Below are positions 1 to 53,094 of a stretch of DNA of 64,000 bases, piece by piece. The translations under genes and the position numbers were made by a program. How positions within the stretch are numbered: the first letter of the stretch is position 1; the number at the start of each line of letters is the position of its first letter. The notes beneath the pieces are model-generated. The model searched no databases. It saw only the letters and a list, made by a program, of their open reading frames with translations, and was not told the origin of the DNA. The DNA comes from Eledone cirrhosa (taxonomy: Eukaryota): the NCBI GenBank assembly GCA_964016885.1, contig CAXHJY010000329.1, positions 95,869 to 159,868 on the forward strand, written 5' to 3'.

Positions 1-3000
1 GTCAGACACCAGAGTTATGGTTTATACGCCCTGTTATTAGACTATAATATTGGCAGAATGGGTGGAGCGTCAGACAACAGAGTTATGGTTTATACGCCCT
101 GTTATTAGACAATAATATTGGCAGAATGGGTGGAGCGTCACACAACAGAGTTATGGTTTATACGCCCTGTTATTAGACTATAGTATTGGCAGAATGGGTG
201 GAGCGTCAGACAACAGAGTTATGGTTTATACGCCCTGTTATTAGACTATAATATCGGCAGAATGGGTGGAGCGTCAGACACCAGAGTTATGGTTTATACG
301 CCCTGTTATTAGACTATAATATTGGCAGAATGGGTGGAGCGTCAGACAACAGAGTTATGGTTTATACGCCCTGTTATTAGACTATAATATTGGCAGAATG
401 GGTGGAGCATCAGACACCAGAGTTATGGTTTATACGCCCTGTTGTTAGACTATAATATTGGCAGAATGGGTGGAGCGTCAGACACCAGAGTTATGGTTTA
501 TACGCCCTGTTATTAGACTATAATATTGGCAGAATGGGTGGAGCGTCAGACAACAGAGTTATGGTTTATACGCCCTGTTATTAGACTATAATATTGGCAG
601 AATGGGTGGAGCGTCAGACAACAGAGTTATGGTTTATACGCCCTGTTATTAGACTATAATATTGGCAGCATGGGTGGAGCGTCAGACACCAGAGTTATGG
701 TTTATACGCCCTGTTATTAGACTATAATATTGGCAGAATGGGTGGAGCGTCAGACAACAGAGTTATGGTTTATACGCCCTGTTATTAGACTATAATATTG
801 GCAGAATGGGTGGAGCATCAGACACCAGAGTTATGGTTTATACGCCCTGTTATTAGACTATAATATTGGCAGAATGGGTGGAGCATCAGACACCAGAGTT
901 ATGGTTTATACGCCCTGTTGTTAGACTATAATATTGGCAGAATGGGTGGAGCATCAGACACCAGAGTTATGGTTTATACGCCCTGTTATTAGACTATAAT
1001 ATTGGCAGAATGGGTGGAGCATCAGACACCAGAGTTATGGTTTATACGCCCTGTTGTTAGACTATAATATTGGCAGAATGGGTGGAGCGTCAGACACCAG
1101 AGTTATGGTTTATACGCCCTGTTATTAGACTATAATATTGGCAGAATGGGTGGAGCGTCAGACAACAGAGTTATGGTTTATACGCCCTGTTATTAGACTA
1201 TAATATTGGCAGAATGGGTGGAGCATCAGACACCAGAGTTATGGTTTATACGCCCTGTTGTTAGACTATAATATTGGCAGAATGGGTGGAGCGTCAGACA
1301 CCAGAGTTATGGTTTATACGCCCTGTTATTAGACTATAATATTGGCAGAATGGGTGGAGCATCAGACACCAGAGTTATGGTTTATACGCCCTGTTGTTAG
1401 ACTATAATATTGGCAGAATGGGTGGAGCATCAGACACCAGAGTTATGGTTTATACGCCCTGTTGTTAGACTATAATATTGGCAGAATGGGTGGAGCGTCA
1501 GACACCAGAGTTATGGTTTATACGCCCTGTTATTAGACTATAATATTGGCAGAATGGGTGGAGCATCAGACACCAGAGTTATGGTTTATACGCCCTGTTG
1601 TTAGACTATAATATTGGTAGAATGGGTGGAGCGTCAGACACCAGAGTTATGGTTTATACGCCCTGTTATTAGACTATAATATTGGCAGAATGGGTGGAGC
1701 GTCAGACAACAGAGTTATGGTTTATACGCCCTGTTATTAGACTATAATATTGGCAGAATGGGTGGAGCGTCAGACAACAGAGTTATGGTTTATACGCCCT
1801 GTTATTAGACTATAATATTGGCAGAATGGGTGGGGCGTCAGACAACAGAGTTATAGTTTAAACGCCCTGTTATTAGACTATAATATTGGCAGAATGGGTG
1901 GAGCGTCTGACAACAGAGTTATGGTTTATACGCCCTGTTATTAGACTATAATATTGGCAGAATAGGTGGAGCGTCAGACAACAGAGTTATGGTTTATACG
2001 CCCTGTTATTAGACTATAATATTGGCAGAATGGGTGGAGCGTCAGACAACAGACTTATGTTTTATACGCCCTGTTATTAGACTATAATATTGGCAGAATG
2101 GGTGGAGCGGCAGACAACAGAGATATGGTTTATACGCCCTGTTATTAGACTATAATATTGGCAGAATCTGTGGAGCGTCAGACAATAGAGTTATGGTTTA
2201 TACGCCCTGTTATTAGACTATAATATTGGCAGAATGGGTGGAGCGTCAGACACCAGAGTTATGGTTTATACGCCCTGTTATTAGACTATAATATTGGCAG
2301 AATGGGTGGAGCGTCAGACAACAGGTTTATGATTTATACGCCCTGTTATTAGACTATAATATTGGCAGAATGGGTGGAGCGTCAGACAACAGAGTTATGG
2401 TTTATACGCCCTGCTATTAGACAATAATATTGGCAGAATGGGTGGAGCGTCACACAACAGAGTTATGGTTTATACGCCCTGTTATTAGACTATAGTATTG
2501 GCAGAATGGGTGGAGCGTCAGACAACAGAGTTATGGTTTATACGCCCTGTTATTAGACTATAATATCGGCAGAATGGGTGGAGCGTCAGACACCAGAGTT
2601 ATGGTTTATACGCCCTGTTATTAGACTATAATATTGGCAGAATGGGTGGAGCGTCAGACAACAGAGTTATGGTTTATACGCCCTGTTATTAGACTATAAT
2701 ATTGGCAGAATGGGTGGAGCATCAGACACCAGAGTTATGGTTTATACGCCCTGTTGTTAGACTATAATATTGGCAGAATGGGTGGAGCGTCAGACACCAG
2801 AGTTATGGTTTATACGCCCTGTTATTAGACTATAATATTGGCAGAATGGGTGGAGCGTCAGACAACAGAGTTATGGTTTATACGCCCTGTTATTAGACTA
2901 TAATATTGGCAGAATGGGTGGAGCGTCAGACAACAGAGTTATGGTTTATACGCCCTGTTATTAGACTATAATATTGGCAGCATGGGTGGAGCGTCAGACA

Positions 3001-4169
3001 CCAGAGTTATGGTTTATACGCCCTGTTATTAGACTATAATATTGGCAGAATGGGTGGAGCGTCAGACAACAGAGTTATGGTTTATACGCCCTGTTATTAG
3101 ACTATAATATTGGCAGAATGGGTGGAGCATCAGACACCAGAGTTATGGTTTATACGCCCTGTTATTAGACTATAATATTGGCAGAATGGGTGGAGCATCA
3201 GACACCAGAGTTATGGTTTATACGCCCTGTTGTTAGACTATAATATTGGCAGAATGGGTGGAGCATCAGTCACCAGAGTTATGGTTTATACGCCCTGTTA
3301 TTAGACTATAATATTGGCAGAATGGGTGGAGCATCAGACACCAGAGTTATGGTTTATACGCCCTGTTGTTAGACTATAATATTGGCAGAATGGGTGGAGC
3401 GTCAGACACCAGAGTTATGGTTTATACGCCCTGTTATTAGACTATAATATTGGCAGAATGGGTGGAGCATCAGACACCAGAGTTATGGTTTATACGCCCT
3501 GTTATTAGACTATAATATTGGCAGAATGGGTGGAGCATCAGACACCAGAGTTATGGTTTATACGCCCTGTTGTTAGACTATAATATTGGCAGAATGGGTG
3601 GAGCATCAGACACCAGAGTTATGGTTTATACGCCCTGTTGTTAGACTATAATATTGGCAGAATGGGTGGAGCGTCAGACACCAGAGTTATGGTTTATACG
3701 CCCTGTTATTAGACTATAATATTGGCAGAATGGGTGGAGCATCAGACACCAGAGTTATGGTTTATACGCCCTGTTGTTAGACTATAATATTGGTAGAATG
3801 GGTGGAGCGTCAGACACCAGAGTTATGGTTTATACGCCCTGTTATTAGACTATAATATTGGCAGAATGGGTGGAGCGTCAGACAACAGAGTTATGGTTTA
3901 TACGCCCTGTTATTAGACTATAATATTGGCAGAATGGGTGGAGCGTCAGACAACAGAGTTATGGTTTATACGCCCTGTTATTAGACTATAATATTGGCAG
4001 AATGGGTGGGGCGTCAGACAACAGAGTTATAGTTTAAACGCCCTGTTATTAGACTATAATATTGGCAGAATGGGTGGAGCGTCTGACAACAGAGTTATGG
4101 TTTATACGCCCTGTTATTAGACTATAATATTGGCAGAATAGGTGGAGCGTCAGACAACAGAGTTATGGT

Positions 4170-7100
4170 TTATACGCCCTGTTATTAGACTATAATATTG
4201 GCAGAATGGGTGGAGCGTCAGACAACAGACTTATGTTTTATACGCCCTGTTATTAGACTATAATATTGGCAGAATGGGTGGAGCGGCAGACAACAGAGAT
4301 ATGGTTTATACGCCCTGTTATTAGACTATAATATTGGCAGAATCTGTGGAGCGTCAGACAATAGAGTTATGGTTTATACGCCCTGTTATTAGACTATAAT
4401 ATTGGCAGAATGGGTGGAGCGTCAGACACCAGAGTTATGGTTTATACGCCCTGTTATTAGACTATAATATTGGCAGAATGGGTGGAGCGTCAGACAACAG
4501 GTTTATGATTTATACGCCCTGTTATTAGACTATAATATTGGCAGCATGGGTGGAGCGTCAGACAACAGAGTTATGGTTTATACGCCCTGTTATTAGACTA
4601 TAATATTGGCAGAATGGGTGGAGCGTCAGACAACAGAGTTATGGTTTATACGCCCTGTTATTAGACTATAATATTGGCAGAATGGGTGGAGCGTCAGACA
4701 ACAGAGTTATGTTTTATACGCCCTGTTATTAGACTATAATATTGGCAGAATGGGTGGAGTGTCAGACAACAGTGTTATGGTTTATACGCCCTGTTATTAG
4801 ACTATAATATTAGCAGAATGGGTGGAGTGTCAGACAACAGTGTTATGGTTTATACGCCCTGTTATTAGACTATAATATTGGCAGAATGGGTGGAGCGTCA
4901 GGCACCAGAGTTATGGTTTATACGCCCTGTTATTAGACTATAATATTGGCAGAATGGGTGGAGCGTCAGACACCAGAGTTCTGGTTTATGCGCCCTGTTA
5001 TTAGACTATATTATTGGCAGAATGTGTGGAGCGTCAGACAACAGAGTTATGGTTTATACGCACTGTTATTAGACTATAATATTGGCAGAATGGGTGGAGC
5101 GTCAGACACCAGAGTTATGGTTTATACGCCCTGTTATTAGACTATAATATTGGCAGAATGGGTGGAGCGTCAGACAACAGAGTTATGGTTTATACGCCCT
5201 GTTATTAGACTATAATATTAGCAGAATGGGTGGAGCATCAGACACCAGAGTTATGGTTTATACGCCCTGTTATTAGACTATAATATTGGCAGAATGGGTG
5301 GAGCGTCAGACACCAGAGTTATAGTTTATACGCCCTGTTATTAGACTATAATATTGGCAGAATGGGTGGAGCATCAGACACCAGAGTTATGGTTTATACG
5401 CCCTGTTATTAGACTATAATATTGGCAGAATGGGTGGAGCATCAGACAGCAGAGTTATGGTTTATACGCCCTGTTATTAGACTATAATATTGGCAGAATG
5501 GGTGGAGCGTCAGACAACAGAGTTTTGGTTTATACGCCCTGTTATTAGACTATAATATTGGCAGAATGGGTGGAGCGTCAGACAACAGAGTTATGGTTTA
5601 TACGCCCTGTTATTAGACTATCATATTGGCAGAATGGGTGGAGCGTCAGACAACAGAGTTATGGTTTATACGCCCTGTTATTAGACTATAATATTGGCAG
5701 AATGGGTGGAGCGTCAGACACCAGAGTTATGGTTTATACGCCCTGTTATTAGACTATAATATTGGCAGAATGGGTGGAGCGTCAGACAACAGAGTTATGG
5801 TTTATACGCCCTGTTATTAGACTATAATATTCGCAGAATGGGTGGAGCGTCAGACAACAGAGTTATGGTTTATACGCCCTGTTATTAGACTATAATATTG
5901 GCAGAATGGGTGGAGCGTCAGACAACAGAGTTATGGTTTATACGCTCTGTTATCAGACTATAATATTGGCAGAATGGGTGGAGCGTCAGACACCAGAGTT
6001 ATGGTTTATACGCCCTGTTATTAGACTATAATATTGGCAGAATGGGTGGAGCGTCAGACAACAGAGTTATGGTTTATACGCCCTGCTATTAGACAATAAT
6101 ATTGGCAGAATGGGTGGAGCGTCACACAACAGAGTTATGGTTTATACGCCCTGTTATTAGACTATAGTATTGGCAGAATGGGTGGAGCGTCAGACAACAG
6201 AGTTATGGTTTATACGCCCTGTTATTAGACTATAATATCGGCAGAATGGGTGGAGCGTCAGACACCAGAGTTATGGTTTATACGCCCTGTTATTAGACTA
6301 TAATATTGGCAGAATGGGTGGAGCGTCAGACAACAGAGTTATGGTTTATACGCCCTGTTATTAGACTATAATATTGGCAGAATGGGTGGAGCATCAGACA
6401 CCAGAGTTATGGTTTATACGCCCTGTTGTTAGACTATAATATTGGCAGAATGGGTGGAGCGTCAGACACCAGAGTTATGGTTTATACGCCCTGTTATTAG
6501 ACTATAATATTGGCAGAATGGGTGGAGCGTCAGACAACAGAGTTATGGTTTATACGCCCTGTTATTAGACTATAATATTGGCAGCATGGGTGGAGCGTCA
6601 GACACCAGAGTTATGGTTTATACGCCCTGTTATTAGACAATAATATTGGCAGAATGGGTGGAGCGTCAGACACCAGAGTTATGGTTTATACGCCCTGTTA
6701 TTAGACAATAATATTGGCAGAATGGGTGGAGTGTCAGACAACAGTGTTATGGTTTATACGCCCTGTTATTAGACAATAATATTGGCAGAATGGGTGGAGC
6801 GTCAGACACCAGAGTTATGGTTTATACGCCCTGTTATTAGACTATAATATTGGCAGAATGGCTGGAGTGTCAGACACCAGATTTATGGTTTATACGCCCT
6901 GTTATTAGACTATAATATTGGCAGAATGGGTGGAGCGTCAGACACCAGAGTTATGGTTTATACGCCCTGTTATTAGACTATAATATTGGCAGAATGGGTG
7001 GAGTGTCAGACAACAGTGTTATGGTTTATACGCCCTGTTATTAGACTATAATATTGGCAGAATGGGTGGAGCGTCAGACACCAGAGTTATGGTTTATACG

Positions 7101-10100
7101 CCCTGTTATTAGACAATAATATTGGCAGAATGGGTGGAGCGTCAGACAACAGAGTCATAGTTTATACGCCCTGTTATTAGGCTATAACATTGGCAGAATG
7201 GGTGGAGCGTCAGACACCAGATTTATGGTTTATACGCCCAGTTATTAGACTATAATATTGGCAGAATGGGTGGAGCGTCAGACAACAGAGTTATAGTTTA
7301 TACGCCCTGTTATTAGACTATAATATTGGCAGAATGTGTGGAGCGTCAGACAACAGAGTTATGGTTTATACGCCCTGTTATTAGACTATAATATTGGTAG
7401 AATCTGTGGAGCGTCAGACAAAAGAGTTATGGTTTATACGCCCTGTTATTAGACTATAATATTGGCAGAATGGGTGGAGCGTCAGACACCAGAGTTATGG
7501 TTTATACGCCCTGTTATTAGACTATAATATTGGCAGAATGGGTGGAGCGTCAGACACCAGAGCTATGGTTTATACGCCCTGTTATTAGACTATAATATTG
7601 GCAGAATGGGTGGAGCGTCAGACAACAGAGTTATGGTTAATACGCCCTGTTATTAGCCTATACTATTGGCAGAATGGGTGGAGTGTCAGACAACAGTGTT
7701 ATGGTTTATACGCCCTGTTATTAGACTATAATATTGGCAGAATGGGTAGAGCGTCAGACAACAGAATTATGGTTTATACGCCCTGTTATTAGACTATAAT
7801 ATTGGCAGAATTGGTGGAGCGGCAGACAACAGAGATATGGTTTATACGCCCTGTTATTAGACTATAATATTGGCAGAATCTGTGGAGCGTCAGACAATAG
7901 AGTTATGGTTTATACGCCCTGTTATTATACTATAATATTGGCAGAATGGGTGGAGCGTCAGACACCAGAGTTATGGTTTATACGCCCTGTTATTAGACTA
8001 TAATATTGGCAGAATGGGTGGAGCGTCAGACACCAGAGTCATGGTTTATACGCCCAGTTATTAGACTATCATATTGGCAGAAAGGGTGGAGCGTCAGACA
8101 ACAGAGTCATGGTTTATGCGCCCTGTTATTAGACTATAATATTGGCAGAATGGGTGGAGCGTCAGACACCAGAGATATGGTTTATAAGCCCTGTTATTAG
8201 ACTATAATATTGGCAGAATCAGTGGAGCGTCAGACACCAGAGTTATGGTTTATACGCCCTGTTATTAGACTATAATATTGGCAGAATCTGTGGAGCGTCA
8301 GACAACAGAGTTATGGTTTATACGCCCTGTTATTAGACTATAATATTGGCAGAATGGGTGGAGCGTCAGACACCAGAGTTATGGTTTATACGCCCTGTTA
8401 TTAGACTATAATATTGGCAGAATGGGTGGAGCGTTAGACACCAGAGTTATGGTTTATACGCCCTGTTATTAGACTATAATATTGGCAGAATGGGTGGAGC
8501 GTCAGACAACAGAGTTTTGGTTTATACGCCCTGTTATTAGACTATAATATTGGCAGAATGGGTGGAGCGTCAGACAACAGAGTTATGGTTTATACGCCCT
8601 GTTATTAGACTATCATATTGGCAGAATGGGTGGAGCGTCAGACAACAGAGTTATGGTTTATACGCCCTGTTATTAGACTATAATATTGGCAGAATGGGTG
8701 GAGCGTCAGACACCAGAGTTATGGTTTATACGCCCTGTTATTAGACTATAATATTGGCAGAATGGGTGGAGCGTCAGACAACAGAGTTATGGTTTATACG
8801 CCCTGTTATTAGACTATAATATTGGCAGAATGGGTGGAGCGTCAGACAACAGAGTTTTGGTTTATACGCCCTGTTATTAGACTATAATATTGGCAGAATG
8901 GGTGGAGCGTCAGACAACAGAGTTATGGTTTATACACCCTGTTATTAGACTATCATATTGGCAGAATGGGTGGAGCGTCAGACAACAGAGTTATGGTTTA
9001 TACGCCCTGTTATTAGACTATAATATTGGCAGAATGGGTGCAGCGTCAGACAACAGAGTTATGGTTTATACGCCCTGTTATTAGACTATAATATTGGCAG
9101 AATGGGTGGAGCGTCAGACAACAGAGTTATGGTTTATACGCCCTGTTATTAGACTATAATATTGGCAGAATGGGTGGAGCGTCAGACAACAGAGTTATGG
9201 TTTATACGCCCTGTTATTAGACTATAATATTGGCAGAATGGGTGGAGCGTCAGACAACAGAGTTATGGTTTATACGCTCTGTTATCAGACTATAATATTG
9301 GCAGAATGGGTGGAGCGTCAGACACCAGAGTTATGGTTTATACGCCCTGTTATTAGACTATAATATTGGCAGAATGGGTGGAGCGTCAGACAACAGAGTT
9401 ATGGTTTATACGCCCTGCTATTAGACAATAATATTGGCAGAATGGGTGGAGCGTCACACAACAGAGTTATGGTTTATACGCCCTGATATTAGACTATAGT
9501 ATTGGCAGAATGGGTGGAGCGTCAGACAACAGAGTTATGGTTTATACGCCCTGTTATTAGACTATAATATCGGCAGAATGGGTGGAGCGTCAGACACCAG
9601 AGTTATGGTTTATACGCCCTGTTATTAGACTATAATATTGGCAGAATGGGTGGAGCGTCAGACAACAGAGTTATGGTTTATACGCCCTGTTATTAGACTA
9701 TAATATTGGCAGAATGGGTGGAGCATCAGACACCAGAGTTTTGGTTTATACGCCCTGTTGTTAGACTATAATATTGGCAGAATGGGTGGAGCGTCAGACA
9801 CCAGAGTTATGGTTTATACGCCCTGTTATTAGACTATAATATTGGCAGAATGGGTGGAGCGTCAGACAACAGAGTTATGGTTTATACGCCCTGTTATTAG
9901 ACTATAATATTGGCAGAATGGGTGGAGCGTCAGACAACAGAGTTATGGTTTATACGCCCTGTTATTAGACTATAATATTGGCAGCATGGGTGGAGCGTCA
10001 GACAACAGAGTTATGGTTTATACGCCCTGTTATTAGACTATAATATTGGCAGAATGGGTGGAGCGTCAGACAACAGAGTTATGGTTTATACGCCCTGTTA

Positions 10101-13100
10101 TTAGACTATAATATTGGCAGAATGGGTGGAGCGTCAGACAACAGAGTTATGGTTTATACGCCCTGTTATTAGACAATAATATTGGCAGAATGGGTGGAGC
10201 GTCAGACAACAGAGTTATGGTTTATACGCCCTGTTATTAGACTATAATATTGGCAGAATGGGTGGAGCGTCAGACAACAGAGTTATGGTTTATACGCCCT
10301 GTTATTAGACTATAATATTGGCAGAATGGGTGGGGCGTCTGACAACAGAGTTATGGTTTATACGCCCTGTTATTAGACAATAATATTGGCAGAATGGGTG
10401 GGGCGTCTGACAACAGAGTTATGGTTTATACGCCCTGTTATTAGACAATAATATTGGCAGAATGGGTGGAGCGTCAGACAACAGGTTTATGATTTATACG
10501 CCCTGTTATTAGACTATAATATTGGCAGAATGGGTGGAGCGTCAGACAACAGATTTATGGTTTATACGCAGTTATTAGACTATAATATTGGCAGAATGGG
10601 TGGAGCGTCAGACAACAGACTTATGTTTTATACGCCCTGTTATTAGACTATAATATTGGCAGAATGGGTGGAGCGGCAGACAACAGAGATATGGTTTATA
10701 CGCCCTGTTATTAGACTATAATATTGGCAGAATCTGTGGAGCGTCAGACAATAGAGTTATGGTTTATACGCCCTGTTATTAGACTATAATATTGGCAGAA
10801 TGGGTGGAGCGTCAGACACCAGAGTTATGGTTTATACGCCCTGTTATTAGACTATAATATTGGCAGAATGGGTGGAGCGTCAGACAACAGGTTTATGATT
10901 TATACGCCCTGTTATTAGACTATAATATTGGCAGCATGGGTGGAGCGTCAGACAACAGAGTTATGGTTTATACGCCCTGTTATTAGACTATAATATTGGC
11001 AGAATGGGTGGAGCGTCAGACAACAGAGTTATGGTTTATACGCCCTGTTATTAGACTATAATATTGGCAGAATGGGTGGAGCGTCAGACAACAGAGTTAT
11101 GTTTTATACGCCCTGTTATTAGACTATAATATTGGCAGAATGGGTGGAGTGTCAGACAACAGTGTTATGGTTTATACGCCCTGTTATTAGACTATAATAT
11201 TAGCAGAATGGGTGGAGTGTCAGACAACAGTGTTATGGTTTATACGCCCTGTTATTAGACTATAATATTGGCAGAATGGGTGGAGCGTCAGGCACCAGAG
11301 TTATGGTTTATACGCCCTGTTATTAGACTATAATATTGGCAGAATGGGTGGAGCGTCAGACACCAGAGTTCTGGTTTATGCGCCCTGTTATTAGACTATA
11401 TTATTGGCAGAATGTGTGGAGCGTCAGACAACAGAGTTATGGTTTATACGCACTGTTATTAGACTATAATATTGGCAGAATGGGTGGAGCGTCAGACACC
11501 AGAGTTATGGTTTATACGCCCTGTTATTAGACTATAATATTGGCAGAATGGGTGGAGCGTCAGACAACAGAGTTATGGTTTATACGCCCTGTTATTAGAC
11601 TATAATATTAGCAGAATGGGTGGAGCATCAGACACCAGAGTTATGGTTTATACGCCCTGTTATTAGACTATAATATTGGCAGAATGGGTGGAGCGTCAGA
11701 CACCAGAGTTATAGTTTATACGCCCTGTTATTAGACTATAATATTGGCAGAATGGGTGGAGCATCAGACACCAGAGTTATGGTTTATACGCCCTGTTATT
11801 AGACTATAATATTGGCAGAATGGGTGGAGCATCAGACAGCAGAGTTATGGTTTATACGCCCTGTTATTAGACTATAATATTGGCAGAATGGGTGGAGCGT
11901 CAGACAACAGAGTTTTGGTTTATACGCCCTGTTATTAGACTATAATATTGGCAGAATGGGTGGAGCGTCAGACAACAGAGTTATGGTTTATACGCCCTGT
12001 TATTAGACTATCATATTGGCAGAATGGGTGGAGCGTCAGACAACAGAGTTATGGTTTATACGCCCTGTTATTAGACTATAATATTGGCAGAATGGGTGGA
12101 GCGTCAGACACCAGAGTTATGGTTTATACGCCCTGTTATTAGACTATAATATTGGCAGAATGGGTGGAGCGTCAGACAACAGAGTTATGGTTTATACGCC
12201 CTGTTATTAGACTATAATATTCGCAGAATGGGTGGAGCGTCAGACAACAGAGTTATGGTTTATACGCCCTGTTATTAGACTATAATATTGGCAGAATGGG
12301 TGGAGCGTCAGACAACAGAGTTATGGTTTATACACTCTGTTATCAGACTATAATATTGGCAGAATGGGTGGAGCGTCAGACACCAGAGTTATGGTTTATA
12401 CGCCCTGTTATTAGACTATAATATTGGCAGAATGGGTGGAGCGTCAGACAACAGAGTTATGGTTTATACGCCCTGCTATTAGACAATAATATTGGCAGAA
12501 TGGGTGGAGCGTCACACAACAGAGTTATGGTTTATACGCCCTGTTATTAGACTATAGTATTGGCAGAATGGGTGGAGCGTCAGACAACAGAGTTATGGTT
12601 TATACGCCCTGTTATTAGACTATAATATCGGCAGAATGGGTGGAGCGTCAGACACCAGAGTTATGGTTTATACGCCCTGTTATTAGACTATAATATTGGC
12701 AGAATGGGTGGAGCGTCAGACAACAGAGTTATGGTTTATACGCCCTGTTATTAGACTATAATATTGGCAGAATGGGTGGAGCATCAGACACCAGAGTTAT
12801 GGTTTATACGCCCTGTTGTTAGACTATAATATTGGCAGAATGGGTGGAGCGTCAGACACCAGAGTTATGGTTTATACGCCCTGTTATTAGACTATAATAT
12901 TGGCAGAATGGGTGGAGCGTCAGACAACAGAGTTATGGTTTATACGCCCTGTTATTAGACTATAATATTGGCAGCATGGGTGGAGCGTCAGACACCAGAG
13001 TTATGGTTTATACGCCCTGTTATTAGACAATAATATTGGCAGAATGGGTGGAGCGTCAGACACCAGAGTTATGGTTTATACGCCCTGTTATTAGACAATA

Positions 13101-16100
13101 ATATTGGCAGAATGGGTGGAGTGTCAGACAACAGTGTTATGGTTTATACGCCCTGTTATTAGACAATAATATTGGCAGAATGGGTGGAGCGTCAGACACC
13201 AGAGTTATGGTTTATACGCCCTGTTATTAGACTATAATATTGGCAGAATGGCTGGAGTGTCAGACACCAGATTTATGGTTTATACGCCCTGTTATTAGAC
13301 TATAATATTGGCAGAATGGGTGGAGCGTCAGACACCAGAGTTATGGTTTATACGCCCTGTTATTAGACTATAATATTGGCAGAATGGGTGGAGTGTCAGA
13401 CAACAGTGTTATGGTTTATACGCCCTGTTATTAGACTATAATATTGGCAGAATGGGTGGAGCGTCAGACACCAGAGTTATGGTTTATACGCCCTGTTATT
13501 AGACAATAATATTGGCAGAATGGGTGGAGCGTCAGACAACAGAGTCATAGTTTATACGCCCTGTTATTAGGCTATAACATTGGCAGAATGGGTGGAGCGT
13601 CAGACACCAGATTTATGGTTTATACGCCCAGTTATTAGACTATAATATTGGCAGAATGGGTGGAGCGTCAGACAACAGAGTTATAGTTTATACGCCCTGT
13701 TATTAGACTATAATATTGGCAGAATGTGTGGAGCGTCAGACAACAGAGTTATGGTTTATACGCCCTGTTATTAGACTATAATATTGGCAGAATCTGTGGA
13801 GCGTCAGACAAAAGAGTTATGGTTTATACGCCCTGTTATTAGACTATAATATTGGCAGAATGGGTGGAGCGTCAGACACCAGAGTTATGGTTTATACGCC
13901 CTGTTATTAGACTATAATATTGGCAGAATGGGTGGAGCGTCAGACACCAGAGTTATGGTTTATACGCCCTGTTATTAGACTATAATATTGGCAGAATGGG
14001 TGGAGCGTCAGACAACAGAGTTATGGTTAATACGCCCTGTTATTAGCCTATACTATTGGCAGAATGGGTGGAGTGTCAGACAACAGTGTTATGGTTTATA
14101 CGCCCTGTTATTAGACTATAATATTGGCAGAATGGGTAGAGCGTCAGACAACAGAATTATGGTTTATACGCCCTGTTATTAGACTATAATATTGGCAGAA
14201 TTGGTGGAGCGGCAGACAACAGAGATATGGTTTATACGCCCTGTTATTAGACTATAATATTGGCAGAATCTGTGGAGCGTCAGACAATAGAGTTATGGTT
14301 TATACGCCCTGTTATTATACTATAATATTGGCAGAATGGGTGGAGCGTCAGACACCAGAGTTATGGTTTATACGCCCTGTTATTAGACTATAATATTGGC
14401 AGAATGGGTGGAGCGTCAGACACCAGAGTCATGGTTTATACGCCCAGTTATTAGACTATCATATTGGCAGAAAGGGTGGAGCGTCAGACAACAGAGTCAT
14501 GGTTTATGCGCCCTGTTATTAGACTATAATATTGGCAGAATGGGTGGAGCGTCAGACACCAGAGATATGGTTTATAAGCCCTGTTATTAGACTATAATAT
14601 TGGCAGAATCAGTGGAGCGTCAGACACCAGAGTTATGGTTTATACGCCCTGTTATTAGACTATAATATTGGCAGAATCTGTGGAGCGTCAGACAACAGAG
14701 TTATGGTTTATACGCCCTGTTATTAGACTATAATATTGGCAGAATGGGTGGAGCGTCAGACACCAGAGTTATGGTTTATACGCCCTGTTATTAGACTATA
14801 ATATTGGCAGAATGGGTGGAGCGTTAGACACCAGAGTTATGGTTTATACGCCCTGTTATTAGACTATAATATTGGCAGAATGGGTGGAGCGTCAGACAAC
14901 AGAGTTTTGGTTTATACGCCCTGTTATTAGACTATAATATTGGCAGAATGGGTGGAGCGTCAGACAACAGAGTTATGGTTTATACGCCCTGTTATTAGAC
15001 TATCATATTGGCAGAATGGGTGGAGCGTCAGACAACAGAGTTATGGTTTATACGCCCTGTTATTAGACTATAATATTGGCAGAATGGGTGGAGCGTCAGA
15101 CACCAGAGTTATGGTTTATACGCCCTGTTATTAGACTATAATATTGGCAGAATGGGTGGAGCGTCAGACAACAGAGTTATGGTTTATACGCCCTGTTATT
15201 AGACTATAATATTGGCAGAATGGGTGGAGCGTCAGACAACAGAGTTTTGGTTTATACGCCCTGTTATTAGACTATAATATTGGCAGAATGGGTGGAGCGT
15301 CAGACAACAGAGTTATGGTTTATACGCCCTGTTATTAGACTATCATATTGGCAGAATGGGTGGAGCGTCAGACAACAGAGTTATGGTTTATACGCCCTGT
15401 TATTAGACTATAATATTGGCAGAATGGGTGGAGCGTCAGACAACAGAGTTATGGTTTATACGCCCTGTTATTAGACTATAATATTGGCAGAATGGGTGGA
15501 GCGTCAGACAACAGAGTTATGGTTTATACGCCCTGTTATTAGACTATAATATTGGCAGAATGGGTGGAGCGTCAGACAACAGAGTTATGGTTTATACGCC
15601 CTGTTATTAGACTATAATATTGGCAGAATGGGTGGAGCGTCAGACAACAGAGTTATGGTTTATACGCTCTGTTATCAGACTATAATATTGGCAGAATGGG
15701 TGGAGCGTCAGACACCAGAGTTATGGTTTATACGCCCTGTTATTAGACTATAATATTGGCAGAATGGGTGGAGCGTCAGACAACAGAGTTATGGTTTATA
15801 CGCCCTGCTATTAGACAATAATATTGGCAGAATGGGTGGAGCGTCACACAACAGAGTTATGGTTTATACGCCCTGTTATTAGACTATAGTATTGGCAGAA
15901 TGGGTGGAGCGTCAGACAACAGAGTTATGGTTTATACGCCCTGTTATTAGACTATAATATCGGCAGAATGGGTGGAGCGTCAGACACCAGAGTTATGGTT
16001 TATACGCCCTGTTATTAGACTATAATATTGGCAGAATGGGTGGAGCGTCAGACAACAGAGTTATGGTTTATACGCCCTGTTATTAGACTATAATATTGGC

Positions 16101-16960
16101 AGAATGGGTGGAGCATCAGACACCAGAGTTATGGTTTATACGCCCTGTTGTTAGACTATAATATTGGCAGAATGGGTGGAGCGTCAGACACCAGAGTTAT
16201 GGTTTATACGCCCTGTTATTAGACTATAATATTGGCAGAATGGGTGGAGCGTCAGACAACAGAGTTATGGTTTATACGCCCTGTTATTAGACTATAATAT
16301 TGGCAGAATGGGTGGAGCGTCAGACAACAGAGTTATGGTTTATACGCCCTGTTATTAGACTATAATATTGGCAGCATGGGTGGAGCGTCAGACAACAGAG
16401 TTATGGTTTATACGCCCTGTTATTAGACTATAATATTGGCAGAATGGGTGGAGCGTCAGACAACAGAGTTATGGTTTATACGCCCTGTTATTAGACTATA
16501 ATATTGGCAGAATGGGTGGAGCGTCAGACAACAGAGTTATGGTTTATACGCCCTGTTATTAGACAATAATATTGGCAGAATGGGTGGAGCGTCAGACAAC
16601 AGAGTTATGGTTTATACGCCCTGTTATTAGACTATAATATTGGCAGAATGGGTGGAGCGTCAGACAACAGAGTTATGGTTTATACGCCCTGTTATTAGAC
16701 TATAATATTGGCAGAATGGGTGGGGTGTCTGACAACAGAGTTATGGTTTATACGCCCTGTTATTAGACAATAATATTGGCAGAATGGGTGGGGCGTCTGA
16801 CAACAGAGTTATGGTTTATACGCCCTGTTATTAGACAATAATATTGGCAGAATGGGTGGAGCGTCAGACAACAGGTTTATGATTTATACGCCCTGTTATT
16901 AGACTATAATATTGGCAGAATGGGTGGAGCGTCAGACAACAGATTTATGGTTTATACGCA
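4170..16960 (+). repeat. 6390-bp higher-order tandem duplication within the satellite (94 monomers minus 2 bp)
   Basis: Variant-marked ORFs recur at exactly +6390 (4946/11336, 5558/11948, 7598/13988, 8006/14396, 8550/14940, 8890/15280). The 2-bp deletion variant TACGCAGTT recurs at ~10570 and ~16960. Boundaries are approximate. Confidence 0.9.
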
Positions 16961-43500: not shown

Positions 43501-46500
43501 TGGAGCGTCAGACAAAAGAGTTATGGTTTATACGCCCTGTTATTAGACTATAATATTGGCAGAATGGGTGGAGCGTCAGACAACAGAGTTATGGTTTATA
43601 CGCCCTGTTATTAGACTATAATATTGGCAGAATGGGTGGAGCGTCAGACAACAGAGTTATGGTTTATACGCCCTGTTATTAGACAATAATATTGGCAGAA
43701 TGGGTGGAGCGTCAGACAACAGAGTTATGGTTTATACGCCCTGTTATTAGACTATAATATTGGCAGAATGGGTGGAGCGTCAGACAACAGAGTTATGGTT
43801 TATACGCCCTGTTATTAGACTATAATATTGGCAGAATGGGTGGGGCGTCAGACAACAGAGTTATAGTTTAAACGCCCTGTTATTAGACTATAATATTGGC
43901 AGAATGGGTGGGGCGTCTGACAACAGAGTTATGGTTTATACGCCCTGTTATTATACAATAATATTGGCAGAATGGGTGGGGCGTCTGACAACAGAGTTAT
44001 GGTTTATACGCCCTGTTATTAGACAATAATATTGGCAGAATGGGTGGAGCGTCAGACAACAGGTTTATGATTTATACGCCCTGTTATTAGACTATAATAT
44101 TAGCAGAATGGGTGGAGCGTCAGACAACAGATTTATGGTTTATACGCAGTTATTAGACTATAATATTGGCAGAATGGGTGGAGCGTCAGACACCAGAGTT
44201 ATGGTTTATACGCCCTGTTATTAGACAATAATATTGGCAAAATGGGTGGAGCGTCAGACACCAGAGTTATGTTTTACACGCCCTGTTATTAGACTATAAT
44301 ATTGGCAGAATGGGTGGAGTGTCAGACAACAGTGTTATGGTTTATACGCCCTGTTATTAGACAATAATATTGGCAGAATGGGTGGAGCGTCAGACACCAG
44401 AGTTATGGTTTATACGCCCTGTTATTAGACAATAATATTGGCAGAATGGGTGGAGTGTCAGACAACAGTGTTATGGTTTATACGCCCTGTTATTAGACAA
44501 TAATATTGGCAGAATGGGTGGAGTGTCAGACACCAGAGTTATGGTTTATACGCCCTGTTATTAGACTATAATATTGGCAGAATGGGTGGAGTGTCAGACA
44601 ACAGTGTTATGGTTTATACGCCCTGTTATTAGACTATAATATTGGCAGAATGGGTGGAGCGTCAGACACCAGAGTTATGGTTTATACGCCCTGTTATTAG
44701 ACAATAATATTGGCAGAATGGGTGGAGCGTCAGACAACAGAGTCATAGTTTATACGCCCTGTTATTAGGCTATAACATTGGCAGAATGGGTGGAGCGTCA
44801 GACACCAGATTTATGGTTTATACGCCCAGTTATTAGACTATAATATTGGCAGAATGGGTGGAGCGTCAGACAACAGAGTTATAGTTTATACGCCCTGTTA
44901 TTAGACTATAATATTGGCAGAATGTGTGGAGCGTCAGACAACAGAGTTATGGTTTATACGCCCTGTTATTAGACTATAATATTGGCAGAATCTGTGGAGC
45001 GTCAGACAAAAGAGTTATGGTTTATACGCCCTGTTATTAGACTATAATATTGGCAGAATGGGTGGAGCGTCAGACACCAGAGTTATGGTTTATACGCCCT
45101 GTTATTAGACTATAATATTGGCAGAATGGGTGGAGCGTCAGACACCAGAGTTATGGTTTATACGCCCTGTTATTAGACTATAATATTGGCAGAATGGGTG
45201 GAGCGTCAGACAACAGAGTTATGGTTAATACGCCCTGTTATTAGCCTATACTATTGGCAGAATGGGTGGAGTGTCAGACAACAGTGTTATGGTTTATACG
45301 CCCTGTTATTAGACTATAATATTGGCAGAATGGGTAGAGCGTCAGACAACAGAATTATGGTTTATACGCCCTGTTATTAGACTATAATATTGGCAGAATT
45401 GGTGGAGCGGCAGACAACAGAGATATGGTTTATACGCCCTGTTATTAGACTATAATATTGGCAGAATCTGTGGAGCGTCAGACAATAGAGTTATGGTTTA
45501 TACGCCCTGTTATTATACTATAATATTGGCAGAATGGGTGGAGCGTCAGACACCAGAGTTATGGTTTATACGCCCTGTTATTAGACTATAATATTGGCAG
45601 AATGGGTGGAGCGTCAGACACCAGAGTCATGGTTTATACGCCTAGTTATTAGACTATCATATTGGCAGAAAGGGTGGAGCGTCAGACAACAGAGTCATGG
45701 TTTATGCGCCCTGTTATTAGACTATAATATTGGCAGAATGGGTGGAGCGTCAGACACCAGAGATATGGTTTATAAGCCCTGTTATTAGACTATAATATTG
45801 GCAGAATCAGTGGAGCGTCAGACACCAGAGTTATGGTTTATACGCCCTGTTATTAGACTATAATATTGGCAGAATCTGTGGAGCGTCAGACAACAGAGTT
45901 ATGGTTTATACGCCCTGTTATTAGACTATAATATTGGCAGAATGGGTGGAGCGTCAGACACCAGAGTTATGGTTTATACGCCCTGTTATTAGACTATAAT
46001 ATTGGCAGAATGGGTGGAGCGTTAGACACCAGAGTTATGGTTTATACGCCCTGTTATTAGACTATAATATTGGCAAAATGGGTGGAGCGTCAGACAACAG
46101 AGTCATGGTTTATACGCCCTGTTATTAGACTATAATATTGGCAGAATGGGTGGAGCATCAGACACCAGAGTTATGGTTTATACGCCCTGTTATTAGACTA
46201 TAATATTGGCAGAATGGGTGGAGCGTCAGACAACAGAGTTATGGTTTATGCGCCCTGTTATTAGACTATAATATTGGCAGAATGGGTGGAGCGTCAGACA
46301 CCAGAGTTATGGTTTATACGCCCTATTATTAGACTATAATATTGGCAGAATGGGTGGAGCGTCAGACAAAAGAGTTATGGTTTATACGCCCTGTTATTAG
46401 ACTATAATATTGGCAGAATGGGTGGAGCGTCAGACAACAGAGTTATGGTTTATACGCCCTGTTATTAGACTATAATATTGGCAGAATGGGTGGGGCGTCA

Positions 46501-49500
46501 GACAAAAGAGTTATGGGTTATACGCCCTGTTATTAGACTATAATATTGGCAGAATGGGTGGAGCGTCTGACAACAGAGTTATGGTTTATACGCCCTGTTA
46601 TTAGACTATAATATTGGCAGAATGGGTGGAGCGTCAGACAACAGACTTATGGTTTATACGCCCTGTTATTAGACTATAATATTGGCAGAATGGGTGGAGC
46701 GGCAGACAACAGAGATATGGTTTATACGCCCTGTTATTAGACTGTAATATTGGCAGAATCTGTGGAGCGTCAGACCAGAGAGTTATGGTTTATACGCCCT
46801 GTTATTAGACTATAATATTGGCAGAATGGGTGGAGCGTCAGACACCAGAGTTATGGTTTATACGCCCTGTTATTAGACTATAATATTGGCAGAATGGGTG
46901 GAGTGTCTGGCAACAGTGTTATGGTTTATACGCCCTGTTATTAGACTATAATATTGGCAGATTGGGTGGAGCGTCAGACAACAGAGTTATGGTTTATACG
47001 CCCTGTTATTAGACTATAATATTGGCAGAATCTGTGGAGCGTCAGACAATAGAGTTATGGTTTATACGCCCTGTTATTATACTATAATATTGGCAGAATG
47101 GGTGGAGCGTCAGACACCAGAGTTATGGTTTATACGCCCTGTTATTAGACTATAATATTGGCAGAATGGGTGGAGCGTCAGACACCAGAGTTATGGTTTA
47201 TACGCCCTATTATTAGACTATAATATTGGCAGAATGGGTGGAGCGTCAGACAAAAGAGTTATGGTTTATACGCCCTGTTATTAGACTATAATATTGGCGG
47301 AATGGGTGGAGCGTCAGACAAAAGAGTTATGGTTTATACGCCCTGTTATTAGACTATAATATTGGCAGAATGGGTGGAGCGTCAGACACCAGAGTTATGG
47401 TTTATACGCCCTGTTATTAGACTATAATATTGGCGGAATGGGTGGAGCGTCAGACAAAAGAGTTATGGTTTATACGCCCTGTTATTAGACTATAATATTG
47501 GCAGAATGGGTGGAGCGTCAGACACCAGAGTTATGGTTTATACGCCCTGTTATTAGACTATAATATTGGCGGAATGGGTGGAGCGTCAGACAAAAGAGTT
47601 ATGGTTTATACGCACTGTTATTAGACTATAATATTGGCAGAATGGGTGGAGCGTCAGACAAAAGAGTTATGGTTTATACGCACTGTTATTAGACTATAAT
47701 ATTGGCAGAATGGGTGGAGCGTCAGACACCAGAGTTATGGTTTATACGCCCTGTTATTAGACTATAATATTGGCGGAATGGGTGGAGCGTCAGACAAAAG
47801 AGTTATGGTTTATACGCCCTGTTATTAGACTATAATATTGGCGGAATGGGTGGAGCGTCAGACAAAAGAGTTATGGTTTATACGCACTGTTATTAGACTA
47901 TAATATTGGCAGAATGGGTGGAGCGTCAGACACCAGAGTTATGGTTTATACGCCCTGTTATTAGACTATAATATTGGCGGAATGGGTGGAGCGTCAGACA
48001 AAAGAGTTATGGTTTATACGCCCTGTTATTAGACTATAATATTGGCAGAATGGGTGGAGCGTCAGACACCAGAGTTATGGTTTATACGCCCTGTTATTAG
48101 ACTATAATATTGGCGGAATGGGTGGAGCGTCAGACAAAAGAGTTATGGTTTATACGCACTGTTATTAGACTATAATATTGGCAGAATGGGTGGAGCGTCA
48201 GACACCAGAGTTATGGTTTATACGCCCTGTTATTAGACTATAATATTGGCGGAATGGGTGGAGCGTCAGACAAAAGAGTTATGGTTTATACGCCCTGTTA
48301 TTAGACTATAATATTGGCAGAATGGGTGGAGCGTCAGACACCAGAGTTATGGTTTATACGCCCTGTTATTAGACTATAATATTGGCAGAATGGGTGGAGC
48401 GTCAGACACCAGAGTTATGGTTTATACGCCCTGTTATTAGACTATAATATTGGCGGAATGGGTGGAGCGTCAGACAACAGAGTTATGGTTTATACGCCCT
48501 GTTATTAGACTATAATATTGGCAGAATGGGTGGAGCATCTGACAACAGAGTTATGGTTTATACGCCCTGTTATTAGACTATAATATTGGCAGAATGGGTG
48601 GAGCGTCAGACAACAGACTTATGGTTTATACGCCCTGTTATTAGACTATAATATTGGCAGAATGGGTGGAGCGGCTGACAACAGAGATATGGTTTATACG
48701 CCCTGTTATTAGACTATAATATTGGCAGAATCTGTGGAGCGTCAGACAACAGGTTTATGGTTTATACGCCCTGTTATTAGACTATAATATTGACAGAATG
48801 GGTGGAGCGTCAGACAATAGAGTTATGGTTTATACGCCCTGTTATTAGACTATAATATTGGCAGAATGTGTGGAGCGTCAGACAACAGGTTTATGATTTA
48901 TACGCCCTGTTATTAGACTATAATATTGGCAGAATGGGTGGAGCGTCAGACAACAGAGTTATGGTTTATACGCAGTTATTAGACTATAACATTGGCAAAA
49001 TGGGTGGAGCATCAGACACCAGAGTTATGTTTTATACGCCCTGTTATTAGACTATAATATTGGCAGAATGGGTGGAGCGTCAGGCACCAGAGTTATGGTT
49101 TATACGCCCTGTTATTAGACTATAATATTGGCATAATGGGTGGAGCGTCAGGCACCAGAGTTATGGTTTATACGCCCTATTATTAGACTATAATATTGGC
49201 AGAATGGGTGGAGCGTCAGACAACAGAGTTATGGTTTATACGCCCTGTTATTAGACTATAATATTGGCAGAATGGGTGGAGCGTCAGACAACAGAGTTAT
49301 GGTTTATTCGCCCTGTTATTAGACTATAATATTGGCAGAATGGGTGGAGCATCAGACAACAGAGTTATGGTTTATACGCCCTGTTATTAGACTATAATAT
49401 TGGCAGAATGGGTGGAGCGTCAGACAACAGAGTTATGGTTTATACGCCCTGTTATTAGACTATAATATTGGCAGAATGGGTGGAGCGTCAGACACCAGAG

Positions 49501-50250
49501 TTATGGTTTATACGCCTTGTTATTAGACTATGATATTGGCAGAATCTGTGGAGCGTCAGACAACAGAGATATGGTTTATACGCCCTGTTATTAGACTATA
49601 ATATTGGCAGAATGGGTGGAGCGTCAGACAACAGAGTTATGGTTTATACACCCTGTTATTAGACTATAATATTGGCAGAATGGGTGGAGCGTCAGACAAC
49701 AGGGTTATGGTTTATACGCCCTGTTATTAGACTATCATATTGGCAGAATGGGTGGAGCGTCAGACAACAGAGTTATGGTTTATACGCACTGTTATTAGAC
49801 TATAATATTGGCAGAATGGGTGGAGCGTCAGACAACAAAGTTATGGTTTATACGCCCTGTTATTAGACTATAATATTGGCATAATGGGTGGAGCGTCAGA
49901 CAACAGAGTTATGGTTTATACGCACTGTTATTAGACTATAATATTGGCAGAATCAGTGGAGCGTCAGACACCAGAGTTATGGTTTATACGCCCTGTTATT
50001 AGACTATAATATTGGCCGAATGGGTGGAGCGTCAGACAACAGTGTTATGGTTTATAGGCCCTGTTATTAGACTATAATATTGGCAGAATGGGTGGAGCGT
50101 CAGACAACAGAGTTATGGTTTATACGCCCTGTTATTAGACTATAATATTGGCAGAATGGGTGGAGCGTCAGACACCAGAGTTATGGTTTATACGCCCTGT
50201 TATTAGACTATAATATTGGCAGAATGGGTGGAGCGTCAGACAACAGAGTT
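31600..50250 (+). repeat. ~9.2-9.9 kb higher-order tandem duplication with a nested 1494-bp duplication
   Basis: Offsets are 9174 (31732/40906, 36012/45186, 36420/45594) and 9854 = 9174+680 (39014/48868, 39818/49672). A nested 1494-bp (22-mer minus 2 bp) repeat is marked by deletion variants at 33480/34974 and 42654/44148. Boundaries are approximate. Confidence 0.88.
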
Positions 50251-51372
50251 ATGGTTTATACGACCTGTTATTAGACTATATTATTGGCAGAATGGGTGGA
50301 GCGTCAGACACCAGAGTTATGGTTTATACGCCCTGTTATTAGACTATAATATTGGCAGAATGGGTGGAGCGGCAGACAACAGAGTTATGGTTTATACGCC
50401 CTGTTATTAGACTATAATATTGGCAGAATGGGTGGAGCGTCAGACAACAGTGTTATGGTTTATACGCCCTGTTATTAGACTATAATATTGGTAGAATGGG
50501 TGGAGCGTCAGACAACAGAGTTACGGTTTATACGCCCTGTTATTAGACTATAATATTGGCAGAATGGGTGGAGCGTCAGACAACAGAGTTATGGTTTATA
50601 CGCCCTGTTATTAGACTATAATATTGGCAGAATGGGTGGAGCGTCAGACAACAGAGTTATGGTTTATACGCCCTGTTATTAGACTATCATATTGGCAGAA
50701 TGGGTGGAGCGTCAGACAACAGAGTTATGGTTTATACGCACTGTTATTAGACTATAATATTGGCATAATGGGTGGAGCGTCAGACAACAGAGTTATGGTT
50801 TATACGCACTGTTATTAGACTATAATATTGGCAGAATCAGTGGAGCGTCAGACACCAGAGTTATGGTTTATACGCCCTGTTATTAGACTATAATATTGGC
50901 CGAATGGGTGGAGCGTCAGACAACAGTGTTATGGTTTATACGCCCTGTTATTAGACTATAATATTGGCAGAATGGGTGGAGCGTCAGACACCAGAGTTAT
51001 GGTTTATACGCCCTGTTATTAGACTATAATATTGGCCGAATGGGTGGAGCGTCAGACAACAGTGTTATGGTTTATACGCCCTGTTATTAGACTATAATAT
51101 TGGCAAAATGGGTGGAGCGTCAGACAACAGAGTTATGGTTTATACGCCCTGTTATTAGACTATAATATTGGCAGAATGGGTGGAGCGTCAGACACCAGAG
51201 TTATGGTTTATACGCCCTGTTATTAGACTATAATATGGGCAGAATGGGTGGAGCGGCAGACAACAGTGTTATGGTTTATACGCCCTGTTATTAGACTATA
51301 ATATTGGCAAAATGGGTGGAGCGTCAGACACCAGAGTTATGGTTTATACGCCCTGTTATTAGACTATAATAT

Positions 51373-51556
51373 TGGCAGAATGGGTGGAGCGTCAGACACC
51401 ATGCCTTGCAGCATAGGAGTTATGGTCCTTTATGTTCTGAGTTCAAATCCCGCCAAGGTTAACTTTGCCTTTCATCCTTACGGGGTCGATAAAATAAAGT
51501 ACCAGTACATTACTGGTACTTTGCACGAATTGTGCCAAAAGTAGATACAATTATTA
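51373..51556 (+). mobile_element. tRNA-derived SINE (family A) forming the right terminus of the satellite
   Basis: A box TGGCAGAATGG at 51373-51383 and B box GTTCAAATCC at 51441-51450. The body AACTTTGCCTTTCATCCTTACGGGGTCGATAAAATAAAGTACCAG is shared with copies at 52796, 60806 and 62208(-). The ATT-rich tail grades into (GTT)n. Confidence 0.9.
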
Positions 51557-51819
51557 TGATTATTGTTGTTGCTGTTATTGTTGTCGTTACTGTTGTTGTT
51601 GTCGTTCTTTTTGTTGCTGTTGTTGTCGATGTTGTTGTTGTTGTTGTCGATGTTACTGTAGTTGCTGTTGTGTCATTGTTGTTGTTGCTGTGCTGTTGTT
51701 GTCGTTGTTGTTGTTGCTGTGCTGCTGATGTTGTTGTCTTTGTTGTTGTTGCTATGCTGTTGTTGTTGTTGTTGTCGTTGTTGTTGTTGTTGTCGTTGTT
51801 GTTGTTGCTGTGCTCTTGT

Positions 51820-51853
<34 letters not shown>

Positions 51854-51980
51854 GTCGTTGTCGCTGTTGTTGTCGTTGTTGTTGTTGCTGTGCTGTTGTT
51901 GTTGTTGTTGTTGTCATTGTTGTTGTTGTTATTGTCGTTGTTGTTGCTGTGCTGTTGTTGTTATTGTTGTTATTGTTGTT

Positions 51981-52013
<33 letters not shown>

Positions 52014-52041
52014 ATTGTTGTCGTTGCTGGTGTTGCTGTGC

Positions 52042-52080
<39 letters not shown>

Positions 52081-52085
52081 GCTGC

Positions 52086-52124
<39 letters not shown>

Positions 52125-52141
52125 CTTTGTTATCGCAGTGC

Positions 52142-52190
<49 letters not shown>

Positions 52191-52580
52191 GCTGTTGTTG
52201 TTGTTTTCATTGTCGTCGATGTTGTCGTTGTTGTTGTTGTTGATTTTTTGTCGTTGTTGTTGCTGTTGTTGTTGTTGTTGTTGTTGTGGTGGTGGTGGTG
52301 GTGGTGGTGTTGTTGGCGAGTACGGGAAGATGGTGGTTATAGTGGTGGTCGTTGTTGTCGTTCTTGTTGCTGTTGTTGTTGTTATTGTGGTGGTGGTACA
52401 GGAGTGTGTGGGGGCGTATGGTCGTCGTCGTCGTCGTCATTGTCATCGTTGTTGTTTGTGTTGTGGTAGTGGTGGTGATGATGATGTTTTGTTGTTTTTG
52501 CTGTCGTTGTTGTTGTTGGTGGTGGTAGAGGAGGTGTGTTGGGACGTATGGTCGTCGTCATCGTCATCGTTGTTGTTGTT
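51557..52580. repeat. Compound (GTT)n/(GCT)/(GTC)/(GGT) trinucleotide microsatellite, ~1 kb
   Basis: Seen directly. It explains the poly-V/L/C/T/Q ORFs at 51510-52721. Confidence 0.97.
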
Positions 52581-52795
52581 TTCCTGTTTTACTTTGTTTC
52601 AATTCAACGAAAAAGTCAGTGCCAGATATCTTCCAACCATTTTCTCTTCTTCAATTCAACCAGAGAATTGATTACTGGAGCCAAACAAAAAAATAAATCC
52701 TCAAAGAATTCAATTCAATGATAACATTGTATATTATGGCACAACCTTGCAGGCTACTCCACTTCTTCTACTTCTAATAGACTTTCATTATCTTT

Positions 52796-52979: not shown

Positions 52980-53094
52980 ATTATCTTTATTATGCTTGTC
53001 TTTGTCAACTAATACGCATCATGTAGCTCTGTCTGTATATTTTATTTTTCTTGCTTTATTTTACTGGGAGATACTTGCAAGGTATTGCTCAACT

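Follow-up and report, generated by a model that had tools for sequence, protein, structure and literature searches.

A SINE-derived 68-bp satellite array in Eledone cirrhosa with a SINE attached at one end and an unamplified sister copy nearby

How does a single copy of a mobile element turn into a satellite array of more than 50 kb? The formation of a satellite's first unit is usually erased by later homogenisation. A stretch of 64,000 nucleotides from Eledone cirrhosa (assembly GCA_964016885.1, contig CAXHJY010000329.1, positions 95,869 to 159,868 of the forward strand; hereafter the window, to which coordinates refer unless stated otherwise) contains a tandem array of 68-bp units whose last unit continues into a short interspersed element (SINE); here, the two joints of the unit, older letters and the source of the non-SINE part can still be read. 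The array is a SINE-derived satellite, probably born in place, with the body of the likely parent SINE kept at its right end. A known process explains it, and no new mechanism or function is indicated.

The array and its unit

The array occupies positions 1-51401 (+) and extends past the left edge of the window. Tandem Repeats Finder assigned to it a period of 68, 756.1 copies (positions 1-51398) and 95% matches. A script placed 756 anchors, spaced by 68 bp in 744 of the 755 intervals and by 66 bp (nine intervals), 67 bp (one) or 69 bp (one) in the others; since every interval measures 66-69 bp, the array is uninterrupted. It comprises at least 755 full units in a single orientation, where four middle units head-to-tail suffice to define a SINE-derived satellite, and the motif of the unit's non-SINE flank gave 747 matches in the array and 0 in 100 shuffles. 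The initial annotation had described a satellite of more than 51 kb with a SINE at its end, and one unbroken 68-bp array with a last unit reading on into a SINE body is what the analysis found.

The units are homogeneous. Their mean distance from the majority unit is 1.76 letters, and they differ from one another by 4.6%, being more alike than the SINE copies of the window, which are 81-90% identical over the segment D and body described below. The 744 units fall into 145 distinct types. Duplicated blocks are apparent at a lag of 94 units (86 of 99 units identical, 3827-10558 versus 10219-16948), 135 units (95 of 111) and 22 units (21 of 22). The unit has no special folding (z +1.15 and +0.56 for a dimer), and no telomere tract is present within the window.

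Each unit is composed of 30 bp of non-SINE sequence, 31 bp of SINE head and 7-9 bp of SINE interior; the SINE share is 38 of 68 bp, and the unit is shorter than the SINE and homologous to a part of it. The last 38 bp match two independent control SINEs, at 52796 and 62208 (0 of 5000 shuffles reach the score in either case), and the first 30 bp match neither (1930 and 4424 of 5000 shuffles reach the score). In the last unit, the non-SINE part (flank F, 30 bp) is found at 51341-51370 (+), with 30 of 31 letters identical to 60774-60804. It is followed by the SINE head (51371-51401, +), which, by comparison of the SINE copies, contains an A-box-like motif and the derived array letters A39 and G42. 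The SINE interior piece that closes each unit, together with GG(T), where it overlaps the beginning of F, was located by joint analysis at 51417-51426 (+). The composition first proposed for the unit, a flank, a SINE head and an interior with a deletion, is borne out; the flank, which had been taken for the 5′ flank of the SINE, is non-SINE, as proposed, but belongs to another dispersed repeat. The derivation of the unit from a SINE holds under all four explanations considered below.

The A-box motif has 635 matches in the array and the B-box motif has none within 1-51401 on both strands. The complete internal promoter per unit of PolIII/TAN-type tandem repeats (PMC10702118) is therefore lacking here, and, with an A-box-like motif but no B box, the units would not work as tRNA-type RNA polymerase III promoters. 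From its sequence, the array would most likely do nothing specific and is, by default, read as passive and heterochromatic.

Four copies of one SINE family are present within 11 kb: at the array end, at 52796-52979, at 60804-60955 and, on the minus strand, at 62208-62381. The copies at 52796-52979 (+) and 62208-62381 (-), each with its own flank, have target duplications of 9 bp (74 of 2000 shuffles reach the score) and 14 bp (0 of 2000), respectively, and served as controls. A-box-like motifs at 51373, 52804 and 60806 and B-box motifs at 51441 and 62299 (-) indicate a tRNA-type head. The elements are short, dispersed, present in high copy number and have a simple-repeat tail and, at the two control copies only, target duplications; these are the features of a tRNA-derived SINE according to the definition used, that in the available text of SINEBase (PMC3531059). 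ARAGORN found no tRNA genes, and an Rfam scan of 51200-64000 gave 14 matches, all below the gathering score and none on the SINE head. A viral motif match (L001) from the motif scans was dismissed as a chance match, and other scans of this kind gave no hits. Two metagenome contigs, L002 (its positions 75-104, -) and L003 (501-530, -), contain the 30-nt central motif of the SINE in otherwise unrelated sequence; a likeness limited to this motif is as expected for a central domain common to different SINE families. The SINE may be of the octopus OR1/OR2 CORE type.

The SINE at the array end and its unamplified sister

The last unit (51341-51401) reads straight on into TGCCTTGCAGCATAG and then into the SINE body. 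It is followed by a 15-nt segment, D (51402-51416, +), the nine letters that close every unit, the remaining SINE body (51427-51549, +), which has a B-box-like motif at 51441, a central domain and a complete 3′ end, and a simple-repeat tail (51550-52287, +; Tandem Repeats Finder), in which (ATT)n grades into (GTT)n. Segment D, an imperfect hairpin form with one extra base relative to the family, occurs once in the window at 51402 and, in its sister form, once at 60835; it is absent from the whole array. The attached SINE runs to ~51549 and is truncated at its 5′ end by ~9-10 nt relative to the family. On its right side, the array thus closes with a unit that is longer than the rest and follows the SINE as far as it goes (51341-51549), as is characteristic of SINE-derived satellites. 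The junction had been recognised correctly in kind; its exact limits are 51401 and ~51549, and the SINE, described at first as full, has an incomplete 5′ end. The (GTT)n tract (51563-52287) has grown from the SINE tail to 725 bp, and one SINE is here bordered by a satellite to the left and a long microsatellite to the right. In the same SINE, 51496-51522 form an inverted repeat of 12 bp around a 3-nt loop; it is imperfect in the other copies and perfect here, possibly as a result of template-switch correction.

An unamplified sister copy of the flank and SINE lies 9.4 kb from the array end. The sister SINE (60804-60955, +) has the same 5′ truncation and the same flank (60774-60803), retains the older head letters T39 and C42-G43 and has been truncated 3′ by another repeat. 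It is identical to the array end at 30 of 31 positions in the flank, 28 of 30 in the head and 13 of 14 in D. T39 is the letter of both controls and C42 that of the 52796 copy. The 60774 copy therefore stands outside the array as an outgroup and polarises the changes. Its escape from the array was considered and ruled out, as T39 and C42-G43 are found in 0 of 744 units. At unit positions 42-43, where the sister has a CpG, the array has GG in 672 units, CT in 35, GT in 15 and CA in nine. Since the split, the array end and the sister have acquired private changes at roughly even rates, ~7 per copy. The region upstream of the sister flank (60735-60775) was also compared with the unit as a possible older, decayed SINE unit, and this was ruled out, 1714 of 3000 shuffles scoring as well.

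Public sequence data bear on the sister locus and on the joint between units. The run search returned six runs under one species label, three contig sets of one sample (share 0.10-0.12) and three runs of restriction-site-associated DNA (RAD); no RNA run is among those listed as carrying sequence of the locus. Four of the six runs were aligned, at 80% likeness and to the sister locus (60600-61000) only; the sample behind the contig sets X1 and X2 may be the window's own source, and their independence is uncertain. The SINE is highly abundant, with 60,537 to 174,620 records aligned per run. Reads of the family clip at 60804, leaving 33,845 (X4) and 33,429 (X5) loose ends, the consensus of which closes with GGGCGGTGG; it follows that the flank is not SINE and that the array and the sister are both without ~9-10 nt of the family's 5′ end. 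Upstream, 60740-60767 (the main part of segment U, 60740-60773) has a depth of 190-600 in the contigs; in X1 and X2, the contigs that contain T60787C or G60788A number 75-84 (84 and 75 for T60787C, which none of the 744 units has). As 60740-60803 (+), that is U and F together, is multi-copy in the contigs, the flank is a piece of a second, unnamed dispersed repeat, and it is from F that the non-SINE part of the unit derives. This repeat has a sharp depth edge at ~60740, and most of its other copies have C and A at 60787-60788, where T and G stand here. At 60960-61000, a third repeat with a depth of about 7000 accounts for the cut 3′ end of the sister SINE.

The same depths could be read in another way, with flank and SINE forming a composite mobile unit, a SINE nested in a repeat, of which many dispersed copies exist; the array would have grown from one of these, and the 60774 copy would be just a further member. 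The multi-copy state of U and F fits this, and independent copies of one master would have head letters in common and no later body changes. It is nevertheless improbable, as the SINE reads that clip at 60804 have a different 5′ end, and copies with the variant flank mostly stop at ~60807-60808, which is read as not continuing into the SINE, with one X1 value allowing 60823. These copies also carry C14 and A15, letters that are found in 0 and 7 of the 744 units.

In X1 and X2, contigs contain the unit-to-unit joint itself: 60831 is followed by 10 letters and then by 60774, which gives the 68-bp unit. The joint variants C60T, C60A, G64C and G64T of these contigs also occur in the window's array, in 17, 28, 10 and 30 of 744 units. 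The main joint has a contig depth of 2542 in X2, compared with 2-9 for long single-locus contigs (medians 7.4 and 5.1), and the window contains ~214 such words; by these figures, the array would be of similar magnitude, perhaps 1.5-3 times what the window contains, with the reservation that depth is not copy number and that variant C60A points lower. Two RAD runs contain no unit joints; since none of the 19 cut patterns tested has a site in the consensus dimer, this is not taken to mean that the joint is absent. The RAD reads include other joints that go back to 60804, of 33, 35, 71 and 114 letters, hinting at further short tandem duplications of the head across the genome.

The joint at 51401 might also be an assembly error, a collapsed satellite having been glued to a SINE through the common head. 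Reads and contigs were compared at the sister locus only. However, the 145 unit types are arranged in ordered blocks and indels are few, which is what accurate long reads should give, and the joint falls exactly where the sister copy predicts. The attached D and body differ from the sister at 10 sites and by one gap and were thus not borrowed from it; an error of this kind is highly improbable.

Origin of the unit and growth of the array

Compared with the 60805 copy and the family majority, the unit has an internal deletion of 14 nt. The 15 nt given by the initial annotation holds against the array-end copy, because that copy has one extra base. The family majority letter at 60848 is A, and, with this letter, cutting out 60834-60847 (+) reproduces the C59 unit joint exactly. 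The 14-mer so removed forms a hairpin, its 5-bp stem perfect and its loop 4 nt long, and there is a 1-nt overlap at the joint; in the sister copy, the hairpin has a 7-bp stem and appears in the centroid fold of both strands (z -1.2 and -2.0). By analogy with established slippage models, the deletion is likely to have arisen by hairpin skipping in replication. At the second joint, between units, the interior closes with ...GAGTTAT-GG and the flank opens with GG-TTTATACG, with an exact overlap of GG, or of GGT with the array-end copy. The pair GGTTTAT and GGTCCTTTAT, initially proposed as the microhomology, is interrupted, and the exact overlap is 2-3 nt, not 7.

The following course of events is proposed. 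A 5′-truncated SINE would have come to adjoin a piece of another repeat, a joint that two copies have in common, and flank and SINE may then have been copied once more nearby, giving rise to the 60774 copy. In one copy, a replication slip or template switch would have skipped the 14-nt hairpin, continued for ~9 bases and then, at the 2-3 nt overlap, returned to where the flank begins, leaving one shortened unit before the intact element; both joints are present in the array, and the step might represent two events. A shortened unit before an intact flank and SINE constitutes a pair of 61-bp direct repeats 68 bp apart, and misaligned exchange between these would multiply the shortened unit only, leaving D and the body rightmost, which would explain why no array unit has D and the last unit does. 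Later growth proceeded by blocks of 22, 94 and 135 units, and unequal exchange is the likely means. A small circle re-entering its own locus would leave the same picture as a slip. The earlier proposal of slippage or circularisation followed by amplification is accordingly retained in its general form, a duplication at a short overlap with subsequent amplification fitting all data; slip and circle are inseparable within the window.

Several observations weigh against birth in place. No target duplication of the array-end SINE was found, the best 8-nt match not adjoining the start of the SINE (52 of 2000 shuffles reach its score), and self-comparison of the window revealed no wider duplicated DNA linking the array end and the sister locus. 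From head to interior, the array end and the sister have five non-majority letters in common; in the body past the joint, they have none of six (a further common letter, 60941, stands in a doubtful alignment and is outside this count). Under even rates, 5 of 52 versus 0 of 84 gives a Fisher p of 0.007. Past the joint, the attached body is 82/91 identical to the sister and likewise 82/91 identical to the unrelated 52796 copy. The SINE-adjacent units are not the most ancestral (rho +0.12 with position, the units not being independent). The region 60684-60739 has zero depth in four runs, where long single-locus contigs reach 2-9; such a gap is no proof in itself and may reflect polymorphism, a filter or a different strain. 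The 51401 joint is seen in the assembled sequence alone, read and contig support covering the sister locus and the unit-to-unit joint, and the left array end lies beyond the window, so that the array size given here is a lower bound.

Part of this evidence would also follow if the 60774 copy were the donor, a 68-bp product (a small circle or template-switch product) having entered a neighbouring SINE of the same family via the 30-bp homology of the head and multiplied at that place; the attached body would then be that of the host. The contrast between head and body, the equal identity of the body to the sister and to an unrelated copy and the lack of a wider duplication all fit this course, which needs no separate duplication of flank and SINE. 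However, four of the five common letters are frequent in the family (the non-majority state accounts for ~20-45% of the depth in RAD data and 49-69% in contigs); G60819 alone is below 10%. These four may be subfamily marks, and the contrast between head and body weakens accordingly. D agrees with the sister at 13 of 14 positions, as against 7/14 and 9/14 with the controls, and, whereas the 60805 copy has lost its 3′ end, the one at the array end retains a tail, as expected of an original insertion. Entry into a host SINE is therefore regarded as unlikely, although less so than a composite unit.

Birth in place is the more probable course, and the attached SINE body is likely the true parent. 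The initial statement that the parent SINE is still attached is too firm as written, given that the body has 0 of 6 letters in common with the sister and stands as near to an unrelated copy as to the sister. It is tentatively suggested, with rather more doubt than confidence, that the locus could be a fossil of satellite birth outside vertebrates, in which a single replication accident made one unit and this unit expanded beyond 50 kb, bordered by its intact parent, while a twin from before the event survives 9 kb off. Given the predicted 60740-60773 sequence at the left end and an unamplified locus in related species, each step from one copy to a satellite would be readable and datable, and the array would be young enough for a test of any centromeric use. 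The slip, circle and unequal-exchange models predict different sequences at the left end of the array, which lies outside the window.

Neighbouring repeats and comparison with known systems

Downstream of the array, two broken retroelements (55725-57074, -, and 58002-60212, -) have a likeness to reverse transcriptase and GIY-YIG proteins; they are Penelope-like by Atlas features (0.94-0.96) and weakly so in Pfam (E 0.005). They are framed by inverted repeats, 54534-54995 with 56998-57467 (88%) and 57490-57691 with 60198-60410 (91%), and broken Penelope-like retroelements beside the array fit a repeat-dense region. A direct repeat (60955-61160 and 61267-61477, 88.6% identical) begins exactly at the cut of the sister SINE and is multi-copy in public contigs. 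The control SINE at 62208-62381 is inserted in a foldback-like element (61890-63006) with long inverted arms, 61923-62077 and 62382-62536 (97%). Three 33-bp tandem units lie at 62592-62691, two of which contain ATGCAAAT, which we take to be the octamer motif.

Tandem amplification of part of a mobile element is a familiar course of events; Alu-derived minisatellites are reportedly a case of it. In the accessible parts of two reviews, SINEs are counted among the sources of satellites (PMC9659126, PMC12692304), and microhomology joining, unequal exchange and rolling circles are listed among the mechanisms (PMC9659126). Satellites derived from transposable elements in general, as far as these texts describe them, likewise arise by tandem amplification of part of an element; the present case has, additionally, an unamplified outgroup 9.4 kb away.

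SINEs are the main repeat class of octopus genomes, according to the available text of PMC8967140, and OR1 and OR2 are described as octopus tRNA-derived CORE SINEs in that of PMC4824008 and PMC4758252. The family analysed here has a tRNA-type head with A and B boxes, a very high copy number and a central motif that also occurs in unrelated contigs. In these respects it may resemble those two families. The literature search, with subscription journals and repeat databases outside its scope, found no paper on an octopus or octopod satellite of this kind.

The closest known systems are the SINE-derived satellites (sSat) described in 56 squamate genomes by Vassetzky, Kosushkin and Ryskov (2023, PMC10702118), cited here from the accessible text of that paper. 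The squamate satellites tend to be subtelomeric and occur at several loci per genome; their occurrence beyond squamates was left as a question by the authors. In most of them, a longer terminal unit matches the SINE to its end, a feature common to all major cases (PMC10702118). To call a visible origin junction rare, as was done at first for this locus, is for this reason an overstatement. The present array meets every sSat sequence feature tested. As in squamates, the unit comes from part of a SINE and is shorter than it, one terminal unit is longer, and the units number in the hundreds (up to 950-1200 there); homogeneity is 94% in the longest cobra locus and about 95% here (PMC10702118). The sSat1Aca satellite has central-deletion variants, and the snake unit measures 67 nt, compared with 68 bp here (PMC10702118). 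The closest counterpart is sSat3Gja2 of Gekko japonicus, which combines the 5′ part of a SINE with about 30 nt of unknown origin (PMC10702118).

The differences lie in a different SINE family, probably in a different phylum, and in a unit with an A box and without a B box. The joints are read here at base level; the word microhomology is absent from the main text of PMC10702118, as far as this was available. The 30 non-SINE bp, a part whose origin is given as unknown in sSat3Gja2 (PMC10702118), have here been traced to the sister locus and to a second repeat. What is new is, then, another SINE family, probably another phylum, an unamplified twin from which the origin of the 'unknown' part and the order of the changes can be read, and the coincidence of the deletion with a hairpin.

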